A stretch of 64,000 bases of DNA from a virus (IMGVR_UViG_3300035208_001807:32001-96000), one strand, 5' to 3'; positions 23,776 through 39,471 are shown, counted from the first letter of the stretch. Numbers and translations are program-made. The notes: generated by a model from the letters alone, not told the origin.

Positions 23776-23807
23776 GGAGAGATGGCCGAGTGGTTTAAGG
23801 CGGCGGT
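23776..23807 (+). pseudogene. 5' half of disrupted tRNA-Ser
   Basis: GGAGAGATGGCCGAGTGGTTTAAGGCGGCGGT; acceptor pairs with TCTCTCC-GCCA at 24455-24465. Confidence 0.85.
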
Positions 23808-23812
23808 AGGGC

Positions 23813-23841
23813 TTTACTTTTACTATAAACCATGCTATGAT
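23813..23841 (+). promoter_or_regulatory. Sigma70-like promoter
   Basis: TTTACT-N17-TATGAT. Confidence 0.65.
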
Positions 23842-23858
23842 ATCTATAGAGGTATCAT

Positions 23859-24320
23859 ATGCGAATACCAAATACTACTTGTTTAGGCTGTAGTAAATCA
23901 CTCTATCAGAGACCAAGCCAGAAAGCCTTAGGAAGGAATGTCTATTGTGATTTATGCTTTCCTACTATAGGAATGTCTCTACGCGGTGAGAGAGCTGCAG
24001 TTGCTCGTAACAGAATCTACGCAACTGCTTATATAGATAGATGGAAAGCTGGTAAAGAATCTGGGATGCGAGGTCAGACCGCAATTTCAGCGTATATTCG
24101 TAAGTATCTATTTGCTAAGTATGATAATAAGTGTTGTCGATGTAGCTGGAAAGAGAAGAATAAGACAACTGGTAAAATTCCTTTAGAGGTCAATCATAAA
24201 GATGGCAACCATAGGAATAACAAAGAAGGCAACCTTGAACTCTTGTGTCCTAATTGCCATAGTTTAACTAGTAGTTTTAGATCTCTTAATAAGGGATCTG
24301 GAAGGCCAAGAAAGTTCTAA
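23859..24320 (+). CDS. HNH endonuclease
   Basis: CCRC ... EVNHKDGNHRNN ... NLELLCPNCH. Confidence 0.9.
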   Translation: MRIPNTTCLGCSKSLYQRPSQKALGRNVYCDLCFPTIGMSLRGERAAVARNRIYATAYIDRWKAGKESGMRGQTAISAYIRKYLFAKYDNKCCRCSWKEKNKTTGKIPLEVNHKDGNHRNNKEGNLELLCPNCHSLTSSFRSLNKGSGRPRKF

Positions 24321-24323
24321 CTC

Positions 24324-24413
24324 GGAAGGGTGGCAGAGTGGCCTAATGCACCTGACTTGAAATCAGGAGGGCCCGTAAGGGCTCCGTGGGTTCAAATCCC
24401 ACTCCTTCCTCCA
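24324..24413 (+). tRNA. tRNA-Ser (TGA), replacement copy
   Basis: CCTGA-CT-TGA-AA-TCAGG, long variable arm, CCA. Confidence 0.9.
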
Positions 24414-24465
24414 AACCGTTGATCCCGCGAGGGGTCCGGGGGTTCGAATCCCTCTCTCTCCGCCA
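24414..24465 (+). pseudogene. 3' half of disrupted tRNA-Ser
   Basis: ACCGT, long variable arm, GGGGGTTCGAATCCCTC, TCTCTCC-GCCA. Confidence 0.85.
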
Positions 24466-24501
24466 TGCAGGTCGTGTACTATTCGCGCTGGAGGCTGTTC
24501 C

Positions 24502-25143
24502 GTGATACTCAAAGACCTTTTGGTTAAGGCTCATGTTCTCAAGGCTAGTGCCGAGGGGACTCCCGCTGAAGAAGTGGAGACCAATGATGCCACTCCTAGG
24601 CCTACTCCTAAGGCCAAAGGTCGTACCGTTACCAAGACGACTGTTGTCGAGACAGCTGCTCCCGACTCCTCATCAGCTGAGATCAGGAAGTTGCTTTATA
24701 CTGCCCTGAAGAAGGCTGCTGCTGGTAGCAATGAGTTCGACTACTTCAAGTTCAAAGAAGTCCTTTCCAAGCTCTCCTCGCATATCAAGGACGAAGCTGC
24801 TCTTTATGCTGCAGCCGGCGCTACCGCTTCTTCGATGAAGGTTAGTGCTGAGGACTTGATTGCTAGTGCGAAGGAGTATCAGAGCATTCTGACCGATGAG
24901 CGTAAAGCTTTTGAGGCCAGTATCGAAGATACTCGTTCTGAGACCACGCAGAAGCAGGCAGAGCTTAAGGCAATAACTAGCCAGATAGCCAAGCTGGAGT
25001 CTCAGAAGGCTTCTCTGGAATCTGCAGTGGACGAGAACACTCAGCAATTAGATGCTGGTGTTAAGGCTTTTGAAGTTGCCCATGAAGAGCTTAATGGCGA
25101 GATCAAAGATGCTATTGCCAAGATCAAGAAGTACATCAGTTAA
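24502..25143 (+). CDS. Coiled-coil hypothetical protein, first gene of the transporter operon
   Basis: GGAGG RBS; heptad-rich C-terminal half. Confidence 0.7.
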   Translation: MILKDLLVKAHVLKASAEGTPAEEVETNDATPRPTPKAKGRTVTKTTVVETAAPDSSSAEIRKLLYTALKKAAAGSNEFDYFKFKEVLSKLSSHIKDEAALYAAAGATASSMKVSAEDLIASAKEYQSILTDERKAFEASIEDTRSETTQKQAELKAITSQIAKLESQKASLESAVDENTQQLDAGVKAFEVAHEELNGEIKDAIAKIKKYIS

Positions 25144-25163
25144 GAAAGGTAGGTAGTTCTACA

Positions 25164-26186
25164 ATGGAGACACCCTCCAATCCTTTGGGGAAGGCTCGTT
25201 CGTTCTGGGCGAAGCCAGAAGGCACAACCGGGATGCTCGTGGCTTTGGGCCTGGGCGCCGCTGGCCTTCTAAGTCTTAACAAGATCCTCCCACTCCTTAT
25301 CTCAGCTCTTGAGAATACCCTGCATGCCACTATCCTTGGTGTTGGCTTAGCAGCGGTTCTCTGGGTGCTGTTTGATAAGCGGTTCCGGACGCTGGCTTGG
25401 TATGGTTACCAAAGCCTTATGCGCTGGATTACCAGCTGGTTCGTGACGGTTGACCCAATCGGGATCGTCAAGAACTACATTCTTGAGATGAAGAGAAATC
25501 TTGAGAAGATGCAGAACCAGATCGGGAACCTTCGTGGTCAGATTACGAGTCTTGCTCGTACTATCACTACGAATGAGGCGAAGATCGACCAGTGTATGAA
25601 GCTGGCGAAGGAAGCCGAGAAACAGAATAAGGTCCCCGAGCAGATGTTAAATACTCGTCAGGCGGGTCGTCTGGATGAGTCTAACAAGCGTATCGAGACC
25701 CTTCGTGTGAAGCTGGAGGTCCTGTATCGCGTTCTCCGTAAGATGTCGGAGACTGCGGATGTGGTTATCCAAGACACCGAAGCGGAGGTCGAGTGCAAGG
25801 AAGACGAGTGGAAAGCTATCACTGCTGGTAACGCTGCTATGCGTTCGGCGATGGCCATCATGCGTGGCGATGTGGACAAGAAGGCTCTCTTCGAACAGTC
25901 AATGGAGTTCCTCGTTACCGACATTTGCAATAAGGTCGGCGAGATGGACAACTTCATGGACATGAGCCAGAAGATCACCAGTCAGATCGACCTGGAGAAC
26001 GGCGTGTTCGAGCAAGAAGGCTTGAAGATGTTGGAGCAGTGGGAGCAGAAGGCTGATTCGGGGGCGTTGCTGAAGCCCTCCGATAAGAAGCGCATTCTGC
26101 GAGAAGCAGCTGACCCGAGCGCGGACATCGAGTCCTTGCCGGAAGTGAAGGTAAGTTCTTACAAGAACGTCCTTCGCAGGAAGTAA
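25164..26186 (+). CDS. Membrane-anchored coiled-coil protein (PspA-like)
   Basis: Two N-terminal hydrophobic helices, then a long coiled coil after DPIGIVKNYI. Confidence 0.65.
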   Translation: METPSNPLGKARSFWAKPEGTTGMLVALGLGAAGLLSLNKILPLLISALENTLHATILGVGLAAVLWVLFDKRFRTLAWYGYQSLMRWITSWFVTVDPIGIVKNYILEMKRNLEKMQNQIGNLRGQITSLARTITTNEAKIDQCMKLAKEAEKQNKVPEQMLNTRQAGRLDESNKRIETLRVKLEVLYRVLRKMSETADVVIQDTEAEVECKEDEWKAITAGNAAMRSAMAIMRGDVDKKALFEQSMEFLVTDICNKVGEMDNFMDMSQKITSQIDLENGVFEQEGLKMLEQWEQKADSGALLKPSDKKRILREAADPSADIESLPEVKVSSYKNVLRRK

Positions 26187-38046: not shown

Positions 38047-38060
38047 TTTAAGGAGCTAAA

Positions 38061-38327
38061 ATGAAGAAGGTTCTGTTCATGTTCATGCTATTCTTTGTTA
38101 TCCATCTTTCGGGTGGCAAAGATGTTGAGAGATACTACTTCCCTAACGCTGAATACAAGTGGCGCATTTGGGGAGGCGACGGCTCTGCCTATGTCGATGT
38201 AACAAGGAAGAAGAGTGGTTGTTGTGGCGACTCTGTATTTGTTGGATCTCTTCTGGCCGGATGGTACATCGTCGACTTTGGCGATGGGACTAAGCTCCCT
38301 AGTTCCTATGCGCCTATGACACCATAA
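38061..38327 (+). CDS. 88-aa protein with hydrophobic N-terminus
   Basis: AAGGAG RBS; resembles 48148-48414. Confidence 0.65.
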   Translation: MKKVLFMFMLFFVIHLSGGKDVERYYFPNAEYKWRIWGGDGSAYVDVTRKKSGCCGDSVFVGSLLAGWYIVDFGDGTKLPSSYAPMTP

Positions 38328-38433
38328 AGATCTTGACAAATCCATATAGGTAAAAAGTACATATGTGGATTATGGCCGATTCTAGATTGCCATGATTTTC
38401 CTGGAATCTGTGCAGCTGCAGTTAGTTTTAGAC

Positions 38434-38508
38434 GCGCCGATGGTCTAATGGAAGGGCCCTGGGTTACGGTCCCAGTGTATGTGGGTTCGAGTCCTACTCG
38501 GCGTACCA
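38434..38508 (+). tRNA. tRNA-Arg (ACG)
   Basis: CTGGG-TT-ACG-GT-CCCAG, ACCA. Confidence 0.88.
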
Positions 38509-38859
38509 TTTAGGGAGTTTGCAATGCCGCTATTCGATTTCATCAAGAAGAAGTTAGTGGAGAGGGAAATGCGTCTGTCTGATCCTAATCTGCTTCCTAA
38601 GGCTAAGCCTTCGAAGCCGAAGAAGGCTAAAGAGCCTAAGAAGTCTGCTCCTCGTCGTGAAGAGACTAATTGGCTTGAGCGGCGCCATCTCCATGTGGAA
38701 ACTACTGAAACCTCTTGGGCCTTCAATCCTAATACTCAGTTTGAGATTGAGACTAATGAGCGTTGTGCAGATTATGTATTTACTACGCCAGCTGGTAAGT
38801 TCGAAGCACGTATTCCCTATCGTACGGTTATCGAAATACATATAGAGGACTAATTTTTG

Positions 38860-38898
38860 GCCCTCTTAGCTCAGTGGTTAGAGCAGGAAACTCATAAT
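38860..38898 (+). pseudogene. 5' half of disrupted tRNA(CAT) (Met or Ile2)
   Basis: GCCCTCT-TA-GCTCAGTGGTTAGAGC..CT-CAT-AA; pairs with AGAGGGC-ACCA at 39461-39471. Confidence 0.85.
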
Positions 38899-38945
38899 GT
38901 TTACTTAGTAGTATGAGTGTGTTATAATAGCTTTAGGAGGCTATT

Positions 38946-39392
38946 ATGAACACACACTTATGTCCACGATGTAACAAGAGGGAAGAGTTTGGTATTAATA
39001 GACTAAAGAAAGATGGGATGCAGACTTCTTGTAAGAAGTGTCGCCAGCGATACCAGCGGGACTGGTATCAGAAGCATAAAAGGTTGCACAAAGCTAGAGC
39101 ATGGAAGTCAAATGAGTTAGTAAGAGTGCGCAATAGGAAGTTACGTGACTCTTACTTGCGATCTCATCCCTGTATTGATTGTGGTGAGAAAGATATAGAG
39201 GTTTTAACTTTCGATCATGTAAGAGGAGTAAAGCGCCTAGATATATGCAGTATGATAAGGCGTGCATTTACATGGAATACTATACTTAAAGAGATAGGAT
39301 TATGTGAAGTCAGGTGTGCTAACTGTCATACAAAAGTAACTAGGAAGAGACGTGAGGACATCAAGCTTAACGGTCGAGCAGCGTCCTCATAA
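38946..39392 (+). CDS. HNH endonuclease
   Basis: CIDC...LTFDH...CEVRCANCH; AGGAGG RBS; stop codon lies in the replacement tRNA anticodon loop. Confidence 0.88.
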   Translation: MNTHLCPRCNKREEFGINRLKKDGMQTSCKKCRQRYQRDWYQKHKRLHKARAWKSNELVRVRNRKLRDSYLRSHPCIDCGEKDIEVLTFDHVRGVKRLDICSMIRRAFTWNTILKEIGLCEVRCANCHTKVTRKRREDIKLNGRAASS

Positions 39393-39430
39393 GACGTTGG
39401 AACTGGGTTCAACTCCCAGGATGTCCACCA
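39356..39430 (+). tRNA. tRNA(CAT) (Met or Ile2), replacement copy
   Basis: GGACATC/GATGTCC, GCGTC-CT-CAT-AA-GACGT, ACCA. Confidence 0.88.
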
Positions 39431-39435
39431 TTAAT

Positions 39436-39471
39436 GCCTTGTCGAAGGTTCGAATCCTTCAGAGGGCACCA
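39436..39471 (+). pseudogene. 3' half of disrupted tRNA(CAT)
   Basis: GAAGG-TTCGAAT-CCTTC-AGAGGGC-ACCA. Confidence 0.85.

Follow-up and report, generated by a model that had tools for sequence, protein, structure and literature searches.

HNH endonuclease genes paired with same-class tRNAs inside five split tRNA genes of a phage

Five tRNA genes (Ser, Trp, Asn, Gln and CAT) are broken at the anticodon arm in a 64-kb window of environmental phage DNA, the window being the whole stretch of 64,000 nucleotides that was analysed, and each break encloses an HNH endonuclease ORF and an intact tRNA gene of the same class as the broken one. Each of these cassettes appears to be a small selfish DNA element that couples an HNH nuclease gene to a working tRNA matching the broken one in class. 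Probably the HNH gene is that of a free-standing homing endonuclease, and the linked tRNA an immune allele of its isotype-specific target.

Anatomy of the five split tRNA genes

The outer 5′ halves start at 23776, 31808, 33161, 33896 and 38860 and comprise the acceptor strand, the D arm and, where kept, part of the anticodon arm. The outer 3′ halves end at 24465, 32351, 33730, 34612 and 39471 and comprise the T arm, acceptor strand, discriminator and CCA. Acceptor strands pair 7/7 in all five pairs of halves. A strict scan for split tRNAs (perfect T arm, 7/7 acceptor pairing and a D arm required, 150–2500 nt between halves, neither half within a called tRNA) returns exactly these five pairs on the plus strand of the window and none on its minus strand, while 820 kb of reversed control sequence yield no pair. 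Five half pairs bracketing an HNH gene and a same-class tRNA are not expected by chance. All breaks fall within tRNA positions ∼29–44, and each junction has lost 2–6 nt of the anticodon arm, so the outer tRNA genes are dead.

The inserts measure 605, 467, 495, 644 and 537 nt in coordinate order, and each is nearly filled by one complete ORF with an HNH signature and one intact tRNA (47–62 bits against the Rfam tRNA model). Inner and outer tRNAs have a common anticodon loop, with only 58–76% identity overall. Their classes agree in 5/5 cassettes, as judged from the retained anticodon loop in outer Trp, CAT and Asn, from homology in Ser and from CTTT plus the tRNA body in Gln. Cassettes 1, 2 and 5 are laid out promoter-HNH-tRNA, cassette 4 promoter-tRNA-HNH, and cassette 3 has its HNH gene on the opposite strand. 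An earlier note on this DNA had described split genes with pairing acceptor stems, inserts of ∼0.5–0.65 kb holding an HNH gene and a divergent tRNA, a class match every time, and varied gene order and orientation, all of which stand, with inserts of 467–644 nt and three architectures. It also placed a sigma-70 promoter in every insert: four cassettes have, at their HNH-proximal edge, a sigma-70-like site with an extended −10, and in cassette 2 the HNH gene is preceded by TGTTATAAT at 31871–31879, all of these being consensus matches only. The GC content of the HNH genes is 0.37–0.43 as against 0.45–0.55 in neighbouring genes, which fits a foreign origin.

Cassette 1 (Ser) consists of:
23776–23807, +, outer tRNA-Ser 5′ half (acceptor strand, D arm, 5′ anticodon-stem strand); 32/32 nt identity to L003
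23813–23841, +, promoter-like site TTTACT-17-TATGAT with TG; consensus scan
23859–24320, +, HNH gene, type A, 153 aa; phrog_14736/10822, E 1e-14
24324–24413, +, inner tRNA-Ser(tga), intact; ARAGORN, Rfam tRNA 58.6 bits
24412–24465, +, outer tRNA-Ser 3′ half; orphan T arm, 39-nt match to L173/L174

The L003 counterpart of the 5′ half is an intact tRNA-Ser(tga), and the half pairs 7/7 with the acceptor strand at 24455–24461. The 3′ half contains A37/38, the 3′ anticodon-stem strand, a long variable arm, the T arm, acceptor strand, G73 and CCA, and its 39-nt exact match is to the body of intact tRNA-Ser genes. Because nucleotides 32–36, anticodon included, are deleted from the outer gene, its identity as Ser rests on homology. 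The inner tRNA is 66–72% identical to the outer halves. The HNH gene has a GC content of 0.385 versus 0.49 in its neighbours, and its Pfam HNH/HNH_3 matches fall below the cut-off.

Cassette 2 (Trp) consists of:
31808–31845, +, outer tRNA-Trp 5′ half, loop CTCCAAA kept; sequence, acceptor pairing 7/7
31884–32243, +, HNH gene, type B, 119 aa; phrog_3106/2255, E 1e-20
32237–32310, +, inner tRNA-Trp(cca), intact; ARAGORN, Rfam tRNA 55.8 bits
32318–32351, +, outer tRNA-Trp 3′ half; orphan T arm, acceptor pairing

Here the inner tRNA overlaps the stop codon of the HNH gene, whose GC content is 0.369. The 3′ half retains a variable loop remnant, the T arm, acceptor strand, G73 and CCA; the outer gene has lost its 3′ anticodon-stem strand.

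Cassette 3 (Asn) consists of:
33161–33189, +, outer tRNA-Asn 5′ half (acceptor strand, D arm, first ∼3 nt of the anticodon stem); acceptor pairing 7/7
33179–33565, −, HNH gene, type B, 128 aa; phrog_2255, E 1e-26, HNH motifs
33572–33659, +, inner tRNA-Asn(gtt), intact, 88 nt, long variable arm; ARAGORN, Rfam tRNA 47.1 bits
33687–33730, +, outer tRNA-Asn 3′ half; orphan T arm, rejoining test

On the other strand, the HNH ORF reaches into the Asn 5′ half with its final five codons and stop. The outer anticodon loop ATGTTAA is kept at 33687–33693, and its complement forms the −35 box of a minus-strand promoter-like site at 33693–33665, a consensus match. The outer acceptor stem equals that of intact tRNA-Asn genes in two other loci (L117 and L132). 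The earlier note had proposed rejoining as a check: ARAGORN calls rejoined halves tRNA-shaped, and here joining 33189 to 33685 gives a tRNA-Asn(gtt) call.

Cassette 4 (Gln) consists of:
33896–33929, +, outer tRNA-Gln 5′ half, ending CTTT (positions 32–35); acceptor pairing 7/7
33934–33962, +, promoter-like site TTGACG-17-TAAGAT with TG; consensus scan
33965–34038, +, inner tRNA-Gln(ttg), intact; ARAGORN, Rfam tRNA 61.6 bits
34055–34576, +, HNH gene, type A, 173 aa; phrog_10822, E 7e-32
34576–34612, +, outer tRNA-Gln 3′ half; orphan T arm, acceptor pairing, intact tRNA matches

The anticodon of the outer gene is kept only in part (CTTT), within a tRNA-Gln body whose best intact matches are all phage tRNA-Gln. 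Its 3′ half comprises the 3′ anticodon-stem strand, variable loop, T arm, acceptor strand, T73 and CCA. The HNH protein scores 27.2 bits against Pfam HNH_3, above the cut-off, and its last motif is the variant CPNCN.

Cassette 5 (CAT) consists of:
38860–38898, +, outer tRNA(CAT) 5′ half, loop CTCATAA kept; acceptor pairing 7/7, L169–L172
38900–38928, +, promoter-like site TTTACT-17-TATAAT with TG; consensus scan
38946–39392, +, HNH gene, type B, 148 aa; phrog_2255, E 5e-27
39356–39430, +, inner tRNA(cat), intact; ARAGORN, Rfam tRNA 56.0 bits
39437–39471, +, outer tRNA(CAT) 3′ half; orphan T arm, acceptor pairing

Over a 24-nt stretch the 5′ half is identical to intact tRNA(cat) genes in loci L169–L172, and the 3′ half contains the anticodon-stem CC, the variable loop, T arm, acceptor strand, A73 and CCA, with ∼2 nt missing between them. 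The class match here is that of the anticodon CAT, which both Met and Ile2 types fit. The inner tRNA overlaps the last 12 codons of the HNH gene. Among 5.8 billion protein clusters, this HNH protein has no relative above ∼50% identity over most of its length, with short partial matches of up to 64%.

HNH families and their tRNA neighbours

All five ORFs are intact, with catalytic and zinc motifs kept in the signature CxxC...H...N...CxNC(H/N). They fall into two PHROG sets, phrog_10822/14736 for cassettes 1 and 4 (type A) and phrog_2255/3106 for cassettes 2, 3 and 5 (type B), in agreement with the earlier suggestion of at least two HNH motif types. Their nearest relatives are only 40–53% identical, so recent transfer cannot be traced.

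Phage tRNA clusters are where these HNH families reside: 736 tRNAs are found in 121/164 loci, and 49/160 HNH ORFs end on or abut a downstream tRNA, the commonest overlap being 9 nt. Linkage may extend to tRNA class: tRNA-Gln lies within 120 nt in 37/80 type A loci, a clade with 96% support mostly adjoins tRNA-Leu(taa), and a tRNA-Gln(ttg) lies 30–71 nt upstream in 9/10 of the closest homologues of the cassette 4 HNH gene, on otherwise unrelated contigs. The closest homologues of the cassette 1, 2, 3 and 5 HNH genes adjoin tRNAs of other classes, which indicates that class specificity is labile or undersampled.

The nested arrangement recurs, as a scan across phages for the pattern proposed in the earlier note confirms. 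Nine further strict nested pairs occur in 160 unrelated viral loci, all enclosing an endonuclease ORF, and seven of the nine also enclose a tRNA. The class match can be read in six of these seven and holds in each: Arg-CCG in Arg-CCG, Trp in Trp, Ala (G3:U70) in Ala, and three Gln in Gln-type bodies.

For Ser and CAT, the uninterrupted homologues found were all in unrelated DNA, and exact-word searches found no uninterrupted Trp or Gln allele. Three sequencing runs contain the cassette-bearing phage, as do two contigs derived from them and an additional assembly. In the runs, assembly and contigs searched, no allele of this phage lacks its cassette, a weak negative because assembled contigs drop rare variants.

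Probable intronless homing and the alternatives

These observations as a whole are likely to reflect intronless homing in which the two target halves stay in place. The nuclease would recognise anticodon-arm DNA, the sole class-specific part of a tRNA gene, in tRNA genes of its own linked isotype, and would cut alleles that differ from its linked tRNA. A genome with the cassette would serve as template for repair of the break, so that the nuclease gene and its linked tRNA are copied into the cut and the cassette moves. The linked tRNA may itself escape cutting; since it keeps the anticodon loop of the outer tRNA and differs from it in the stems, immunity would have to reside in the stems. Where flanking homology is lacking, the cassette might be joined straight into the break with loss of 2–6 nt, leaving the halves of the resident gene as the dead flanks observed here. 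Those halves could later serve as homology arms for homing into related phages with an uninterrupted allele. This genome would have accumulated five insertions of this kind, from two HNH families and with three architectures. The class match would follow because the nuclease targets homologues of its own neighbouring tRNA, so selection for rescue need not be invoked, and since the phage keeps a tRNA of every class, the element would cost it little.

Nested forms could instead be one-off scars of illegitimate repair, dead-end accidents that do not themselves home, although this seems unlikely. The HNH-tRNA module would then normally spread by co-conversion between syntenic tRNA clusters, without remnants, and "self-compensation" would not be a selected property. 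Consistent with scars, most HNH-tRNA modules in the 160 loci lack recognisable remnants, only ∼9 strict nested pairs compare with 86 loci having a same-strand adjacent tRNA, L107 has already lost its 3′ half, and the five cassettes vary in nucleotide loss at their junctions, with no common end sequence or target duplication. However, five in one genome, with both halves nearly complete, are many for rare accidents, the halves are structurally ideal as homology arms, and the nested 5′ junction is common to two diverged phages (L107 and L109, ∼80% nucleotide identity). The sole difference between scars and intronless homing lies in whether the nested form is itself transmissible.

It is improbable that the HNH gene inserted alone and the replacement tRNA came separately later, kept by selection because the phage needed it. 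HNH-only splits do occur, in a tRNA-Phe(GAA) (L158) and in a Gln/Glu-like tRNA of the cultured Enterococcus phage vB_OCPT_Bop, so a replacement tRNA is common and not obligatory for insertion. Yet the inner tRNA lies inside the halves and adjoins the HNH gene in 5/5 cassettes, and overlaps the ORF end in cassettes 2 and 5, and equally tight ORF-tRNA coupling recurs in 49/160 unrelated loci; a second precise same-class insertion into the same gap, five times over, would be unparsimonious. HNH proteins have non-homing roles in phages, and the HNH genes might be passengers or act in, for example, packaging or defence, while a different tRNA-gene recombination process replaced the tRNAs. That is slightly less probable still, given that five of only ∼7 HNH genes in the 149-kb record lie precisely within split tRNAs, that no integrase, transposase or terminal repeat was found in the five inserts, and that every nested pair elsewhere encloses an endonuclease ORF, including one of a different type in L125. 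It is extremely unlikely that the outer genes are functional split or intron-containing tRNAs whose insert is removed, or whose halves are joined, at the RNA level. The intact, complementary acceptor, D and T arms of each pair and the tRNA-shaped calls for rejoined halves would suit such joining, but Rfam gives no match to an intron ribozyme, group I or other, in the five cassettes, the ORF and tRNA fill the inserts, and a same-class tRNA is already supplied. Moreover, direct joining of the halves cannot yield a working anticodon arm, since the outer genes lack the Ser anticodon, the Trp 3′ stem strand and, in the other cases, 2–3 nt. The absence of splicing asserted in the earlier note is thus upheld.

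Relation to known mobile systems

The closest known systems are free-standing homing endonucleases of T-even phages, the T4 seg genes and above all SegB in the tRNA cluster, which practise intronless homing: an endonuclease gene lies beside the immune allele of its target, and the two are co-converted (PMC2330249). SegB cuts tRNA genes of relatives lacking it, and SegB and neighbouring tRNA genes are inherited preferentially (PMC2330249); SegB homologues widely co-localise with tRNA genes (PMC13096335, 2026). As here, the nuclease gene lies outside any intron or intein, among phage tRNA genes. In contrast to the HNH proteins, isotype-specific association and anticodon-arm insertion points of the present cassettes, SegB is a GIY-YIG enzyme that recognises a universal T-loop motif without isotype preference (PMC2330249, PMC13096335), and its homing leaves no target remnants, whereas both halves flank the cassettes here.

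The site-specific T5 endonucleases F-TflI, II and IV (Akulenko et al. 2004), as presented in PMC2330249, are ORFs in the T5 tRNA gene cluster. T5 hegA, an HNH gene, is 39% identical to the C-terminal, catalytic half of the cassette 4 HNH (type A), and the vB_OCPT_Bop homologue of that HNH is annotated with the note F-TflIV. F-Tfl expression is discussed as limited by tRNA processing of the transcript (PMC2330249), which would fit the ORF-tRNA overlaps seen here. No report was found in the literature searched of T5 genes inside split tRNA genes or with a class-matched tRNA.

Endonucleases of group I introns and inteins likewise sit inside their own recognition site, which renders the occupied allele immune, and the gene halves on either side are able to serve as homology arms. 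There, RNA or protein splicing restores the host gene, whereas here that gene is left broken and its function passes to a second copy. Collaborative homing was reportedly described by Bonocora and Shub in 2009. Islands and prophages that integrate into tRNA genes also bring sequence that preserves tRNA function; they bring along a duplicate of the tRNA 3′ end, depend on a tyrosine or serine recombinase, duplicate att and rebuild the same gene, in contrast to these cassettes, which have no recombinase or repeat, supply a whole divergent tRNA and leave the old gene in two pieces. The same logic underlies the synthetic "cleave and rescue" gene drives reportedly built by Oberhofer, Ivy and Hay in 2019, in which a nuclease destroys the resident gene copy and the element carries a recoded, uncuttable one. 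Those drives are engineered, Cas9-based and rely on killing non-carriers, whereas the cassettes are a natural phage element, presumably spreading by break repair, with a target that is probably dispensable in the laboratory.

The "third strategy" of the earlier note was overstated, as co-conversion of an immune allele is known intronless homing (PMC2330249). What is new is the nested anatomy, together with the isotype-specific HNH-tRNA modules; no description of a cassette nested in a split tRNA with a same-class replacement was found in the literature searched. Rather than splicing itself out, such an element would break its target and replace the gene.

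Anatomy of five split tRNA genes

The IMG/VR source record comprises 149,407 bases, is estimated to be 68% complete, and carries 28 tRNA genes detectable with ARAGORN, 23 of which lie inside the window. Five sites were inspected by direct reading of the sequence. Each holds a broken (outer) tRNA gene whose 5' and 3' halves enclose a cassette, that is, an insert with an HNH endonuclease gene of one of two types (A or B) and an intact (inner) tRNA gene.

Split tRNA genes and their cassettes
23776-24465, plus strand: outer tRNA-Ser; cassette 1, 605 nt; promoter-HNH-tRNA, type A HNH, inner Ser-tga
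31808-32351, plus strand: outer tRNA-Trp; cassette 2, 467 nt; promoter-HNH-tRNA, type B HNH, inner Trp-cca
33161-33730, plus strand: outer tRNA-Asn; cassette 3, 495 nt; type B HNH on the opposite strand, inner Asn-gtt
33896-34612, plus strand: outer tRNA-Gln; cassette 4, 644 nt; promoter-tRNA-HNH, type A HNH, inner Gln-ttg
38860-39471, plus strand: outer tRNA(CAT); cassette 5, 537 nt; promoter-HNH-tRNA, type B HNH, inner cat

A T arm with its acceptor strand occurs outside called tRNAs 11 times in the whole record. Five of these are the 3' halves, each ending in N73-CCA, and each is matched by a 5' acceptor strand, U8, and D arm 0.5-0.7 kb upstream, where the earlier note had placed them. A strict scanner was set to demand a perfect T arm, acceptor strands paired at 7/7 positions, a D arm, and 150-2500 nt between halves that both lie outside called tRNAs. 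It returns exactly these five pairs on the plus strand of the window and none on the minus strand, and 820 kb of reversed sequence, used as a control, yield no pair. A relaxed version added mostly noise (5 control hits vs 20) and was left out of the counts. The half-pair anatomy and the scanner and control counts establish that each pair of halves stems from one gene and is neither a chance match nor a decayed duplicate, confirming the five splits described in the earlier note.

Every one of the five breaks falls within the anticodon arm, and each outer gene has an intact T arm. Comparison with intact homologues shows loss of positions 32-36 from the Ser gene. The Asn gene is broken between approximately 29 and 32, Gln after 35 with 2-3 nt lost, CAT after 38/39 with ∼2 nt lost, and Trp after 38 with loss of the 3' stem strand. 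Complete anticodon loops persist in the 5' halves of Trp (CTCCAAA) and CAT (CTCATAA). The 3' half of Asn keeps ATGTTAA, the complement of which forms the -35 box of a minus-strand promoter-like site, and joining 33189 to 33685 yields an ARAGORN Asn-gtt call. Outer Gln retains CTTT; among 755 tRNAs, those most similar to it are without exception phage tRNA-Gln. In outer Ser the anticodon is gone; the 5'-most 32 nt exactly match an intact tRNA-Ser(tga) of an unrelated viral contig (L003), and the 3' body shares an identical 39-nt stretch with intact tRNA-Ser genes from a bacterium of the Spirochaetia. The 5' half of outer CAT has 24 nt in common with intact tRNA(cat) genes in metagenome contigs. 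When the halves are rejoined in silico, the products are tRNA-shaped, with a firm anticodon for CAT, Trp, and Asn but a junction-dependent one for Ser and Gln.

As the earlier note had proposed, inner and outer tRNAs belong to the same class in all five cassettes, as judged by kept loops (Trp, CAT, Asn), CTTT and body (Gln), or homology (Ser); in cassette 5 the anticodon is CAT in both, of Met or Ile2 type. The commonest class makes up 13% of tRNAs, so five chance class matches are out of the question. The stems of inner and outer tRNAs differ.

Each insert contains one intact ORF of 119-173 aa, and all five match PHROG HNH families (E 1e-14 to 7e-32): phrog_10822/14736 for cassettes 1 and 4, and phrog_2255/3106 for cassettes 2, 3, and 5. 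Two CxxC pairs and an H...N...H/N motif are kept in every one, and the C..C, H, and C..C columns are invariant in an alignment that includes a sixth HNH encoded at 40316-40606. Pfam HNH_3 is above cut-off in cassette 4 only, profile searches of solved structures gave nothing close or useful, and nothing closely related to the cassette 5 HNH turned up among 5.8 billion proteins. By motif and family, the cassette proteins are predicted HNH (His-Me finger) endonucleases. HNH was the sole ORF family detected in the inserts, which hold no recombinase or integrase. The inner tRNAs are intact and score 47-62 bits against the Rfam tRNA model. HNH and intact tRNA in every insert, at least two HNH types, and variable order and orientation are thus borne out by PHROG, Rfam, and the motif alignment. 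Of the sigma70 promoters ascribed to each insert, what stands is a set of promoter-like sites with an extended -10 at the HNH-proximal edge, which are consensus matches only. The cassette HNH genes have a GC content of 37-43% vs 45-55% in neighbouring genes, and neither target-site duplications nor common cassette ends were found in the window. The whole record has approximately seven HNH genes, including these five.

The inner tRNA of cassette 3 (33572-33659), a putative tRNA-Asn(gtt) of 88 nt, carries a class II-like long variable arm; 4 of 29 tRNA-Asn genes in the viral loci described below are at least 82 nt long.

Recurrence and nuclease-tRNA linkage in other phage DNA

Around homologues of the two HNH types, 160 viral loci were fetched, which show no kinship to the window's phage beyond HNH and tRNA genes. 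tRNAs are present in 121 of 164 loci, 736 in total. The strict scanner finds nine further nested pairs, three of them in flanking DNA obtained without selection for an HNH. An endonuclease ORF is enclosed in 9/9 and a tRNA as well in 7/9, with a class match readable in six. The pattern that the earlier note proposed to look for in phage genomes is indeed found.

Further nested pairs that enclose a tRNA (L, contig handles)
L063: inner Arg-ccg; outer gene keeps CTCCGAA
L134: inner Trp-cca; outer CCA gene
L135: inner Ala-tgc; outer G3:U70 gene
L097, L109, L119: inner Gln-ttg; outer U1:A72 Gln-type bodies
L132: inner Leu-taa; outer body without class assignment

All readable breaks in nested pairs lie in or beside the anticodon arm, and L134 has a possible ∼8-nt target duplication. 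L107 and L109 have a 5' junction in common at ∼80% nucleotide identity, indicating that the nested form persists. Inner and outer tRNAs agree in whether CCA is encoded in all five window cassettes and in seven further nested loci, an agreement that suggests exchange among phages of similar hosts.

Some splits contain a nuclease without a tRNA. At L158:325-831, a type B HNH ORF with no accompanying tRNA interrupts a tRNA-Phe(GAA) directly behind the anticodon loop; at L125:1269-2268, another tRNA is interrupted by a zinc-ribbon ORF of 300 aa, the C-terminal part of which looks PD-(D/E)XK-like by eye only. Nucleases of other families may exploit this site as well. In the cultured Enterococcus phage vB_OCPT_Bop (ON125307.1; L168:1392-2216), a Gln/Glu-like tRNA is split by a promoter and an F-TflIV-like HNH with no inner tRNA; the HNH is the sole annotation at this site in the record. 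Because of these three splits, the replacement tRNA is to be regarded as usual, not obligatory.

The linkage of nuclease and tRNA extends beyond nested pairs. In 49 of 160 cases, the HNH ORF runs into or directly adjoins a tRNA on the same strand, the commonest overlap being 9 nt, with the stop codon formed by tRNA U8-A9-G10. A tRNA-Gln lies within 120 nt in 37/80 type A loci. On a tree, the class labels require 32 changes vs 46.8 when shuffled (0/200 shuffles as low), a difference to which near-copies contribute, and a clade with 96% support is mostly beside Leu-taa. Among the 10 closest homologues of the cassette 4 HNH (44-53% identity), nine have a tRNA-Gln(ttg) 30-71 nt upstream, in the same order as in the window. 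The nearest homologues of the cassette 1, 2, 3, and 5 HNHs (∼30-50% identity) adjoin other tRNA classes, so either class specificity may shift or sampling may be thin. Close relatives of the inner tRNAs are absent from the set of 755 tRNAs, so co-inheritance of tRNA and HNH is not traceable by sequence.

Relatives of the window's phage are scarce. An 11-kb stretch of the region had no megablast match among 50,697 phage records, no close relative was seen in IMG/VR or INPHARED, and a neighbouring 519-aa protein has only distant relatives (≤38% identity) in Lak and other huge phages. Two sequencing runs of separate studies, from landfill (2018) and groundwater (2022), contain contigs that match 23000-41500 with 0-1 differences. 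A third contains a slightly divergent strain, whose differences in this stretch cluster at 29262-29574 and 40465-40873.

The earlier note had expected uninterrupted alleles in relatives. Uninterrupted homologues were found for Ser and CAT, but only in unrelated DNA; a cassette-free version of this phage was not seen in the assembled contigs of the three runs or in other assemblies. No contig of the three runs over 23000-41500 joins across a cassette, and one further assembly and two Logan contigs with the cassette 5 HNH have an identical gene layout across the region, cassettes included. Exact-word searches of IMG/VR with the 5' halves of Trp, CAT, and Gln, and of JGI metagenomes with the Trp word, gave no match. 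Apparent skips from 23802 to 24440 were rejected as a cassette-free Ser allele: their sides are only 24-27 nt with other letters between, and they are tRNA-Ser genes of other organisms.

Neighbouring tRNA fragments and unusual tRNA genes

Several other tRNA-related loci were observed in the record.

14673-14787: 68-nt tRNA(cat), then 15 nt, then an orphan T arm, acceptor strand, and A-CCA (14756-14787)
40213-40296: orphan T arm, acceptor strand, and CCA, between tRNA-Leu(taa) and a small HNH gene
40316-40606: this sixth, small HNH gene (Pfam HNH, 28.9 bits)
40606-40695: long-arm tRNA, 4-base anticodon 'taga' by ARAGORN
40900-40979: tRNA-like gene missed by ARAGORN (Rfam tRNA, 33.9 bits)
46549-48081: 510-aa TROVE/Ro60-like protein (phrog_850)

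The sixth HNH gene ends at the exact start of the long-arm tRNA, and the two form an HNH-tRNA module (40316-40695) that is not nested between halves. The orphan at 14756-14787 has no 5' partner within 2.5 kb and no HNH nearby; the locus may be an older replacement scar. At 40213-40296, a D-arm-like start precedes the orphan T arm, and the anticodon arm is not recognisable.

The gene at 40900-40979 has normal acceptor and T arms, with a hairpin of loop TTCCTAA (CCT) in place of the D arm. A unit of like build, with loop CTTCTAC (TCT), is found outside the window at 121097-121178 of the full record (G000:C1) and is 84.5% identical to L156:149-231, on a viral contig. Such units may represent an unusual tRNA-Arg shape. 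Close by, at G000:C1:121181-121254, is a tRNA with anticodon CTA, labelled Pyl by ARAGORN and amber-reading; L003 has such a tRNA as well. Two orphan tRNA-like T arms (46178 and 46477) lie upstream of the Ro60-like gene; the locus probably encodes a phage Ro60 together with Y-RNA-like partners.

Splicing-free insertion and a proposed drive

A group I intron with an internal endonuclease was considered here. Rfam searches of 22000-43000 at E up to 1 found no ribozyme or intron family, the inserts are too full for an intron core, and anticodon-arm nucleotides are missing at every junction, which precludes a functional joint of the halves. Inteins are inapplicable because the outer host genes are RNAs. 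With no ribozyme, 467-644 nt filled by ORF and tRNA, and RNA host genes, the cassette HNH genes are not embedded in a self-splicing intron or intein but are free-standing, in accord with the splicing-free insertion that had been claimed.

Integrase islands likewise do not account for the arrangement: a recombinase is lacking, the 3' part of the tRNA is not directly repeated at the two ends, and the flanks are complementary halves. An enzyme like the GIY-YIG nuclease SegB is rejected since the proteins are HNH and the breaks are in the anticodon arm, with outer T arms intact. An assembly artefact is countered by single contigs from two studies that bridge the junctions.

Anatomy, intact nuclease genes, class match, recurrence, and nuclease-tRNA linkage are matters of observation; the interpretation of the splicing-free cassettes as free-standing homing elements, a variant in which the nested anatomy and the isotype-specific HNH-tRNA modules are the new parts, is partly supported. 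In the proposed mechanism, the HNH would cut the anticodon-arm DNA of the resident allele, the linked inner tRNA would be immune via its different stems, and the module would be copied by break repair. A nuclease targeting homologues of its neighbour would bring that neighbour along, so the class match would need no special selection.

This logic resembles the intronless homing of T4 SegB, which cuts tRNA genes and drives inheritance of its own tRNA region (PMC2330249). However, SegB reads the universal T loop with no isotype preference (PMC13096335), whereas the cassettes break the anticodon arm and are class-matched. The catalytic half of the cassette 4 HNH has 39% identity to T5 hegA. In full-text literature searches, no account emerged of a cassette with nuclease and tRNA placed inside a tRNA gene of matching class.

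A broader reading, which we regard as a serious possibility that falls short of probable, is that isotype-specific HNH-tRNA modules constitute a widespread natural "cleave and replace" drive. Each clade would read one class's anticodon arm as DNA, destroy resident alleles, and install the linked allele, continually turning over the tRNA repertoire of large phages, and might spread variants that escape host anticodon nucleases.

To our knowledge, homing endonucleases have been thought to persist in genes only via introns or inteins, or else between genes. On the broader reading, the nested form would be a third way, beside introns and inteins, for a homing element to reside inside an essential-type gene. 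A cassette that sits inside its target, leaves the target broken, and carries a substitute follows the logic of engineered cleave-and-rescue drives, with five natural instances in this genome and repeated ones in other DNA. Related arrangements in cultured phages, namely Enterococcus phage vB_OCPT_Bop, Pseudomonas pakpunaviruses, and T5, offer testable systems; in the pakpunaviruses B8 and LCK69, a tRNA-Gln precedes the HNH gene. If the nucleases read anticodon-arm DNA by class, they would be naturally diversified, isotype-specific DNA recognition modules. Such activity would account for the mosaic make-up of phage tRNA clusters, strewn with tRNA fragments that annotation pipelines skip or mislabel. 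It would also drive the turnover of tRNA alleles, which bears on the arms race with defence systems that cleave tRNA.
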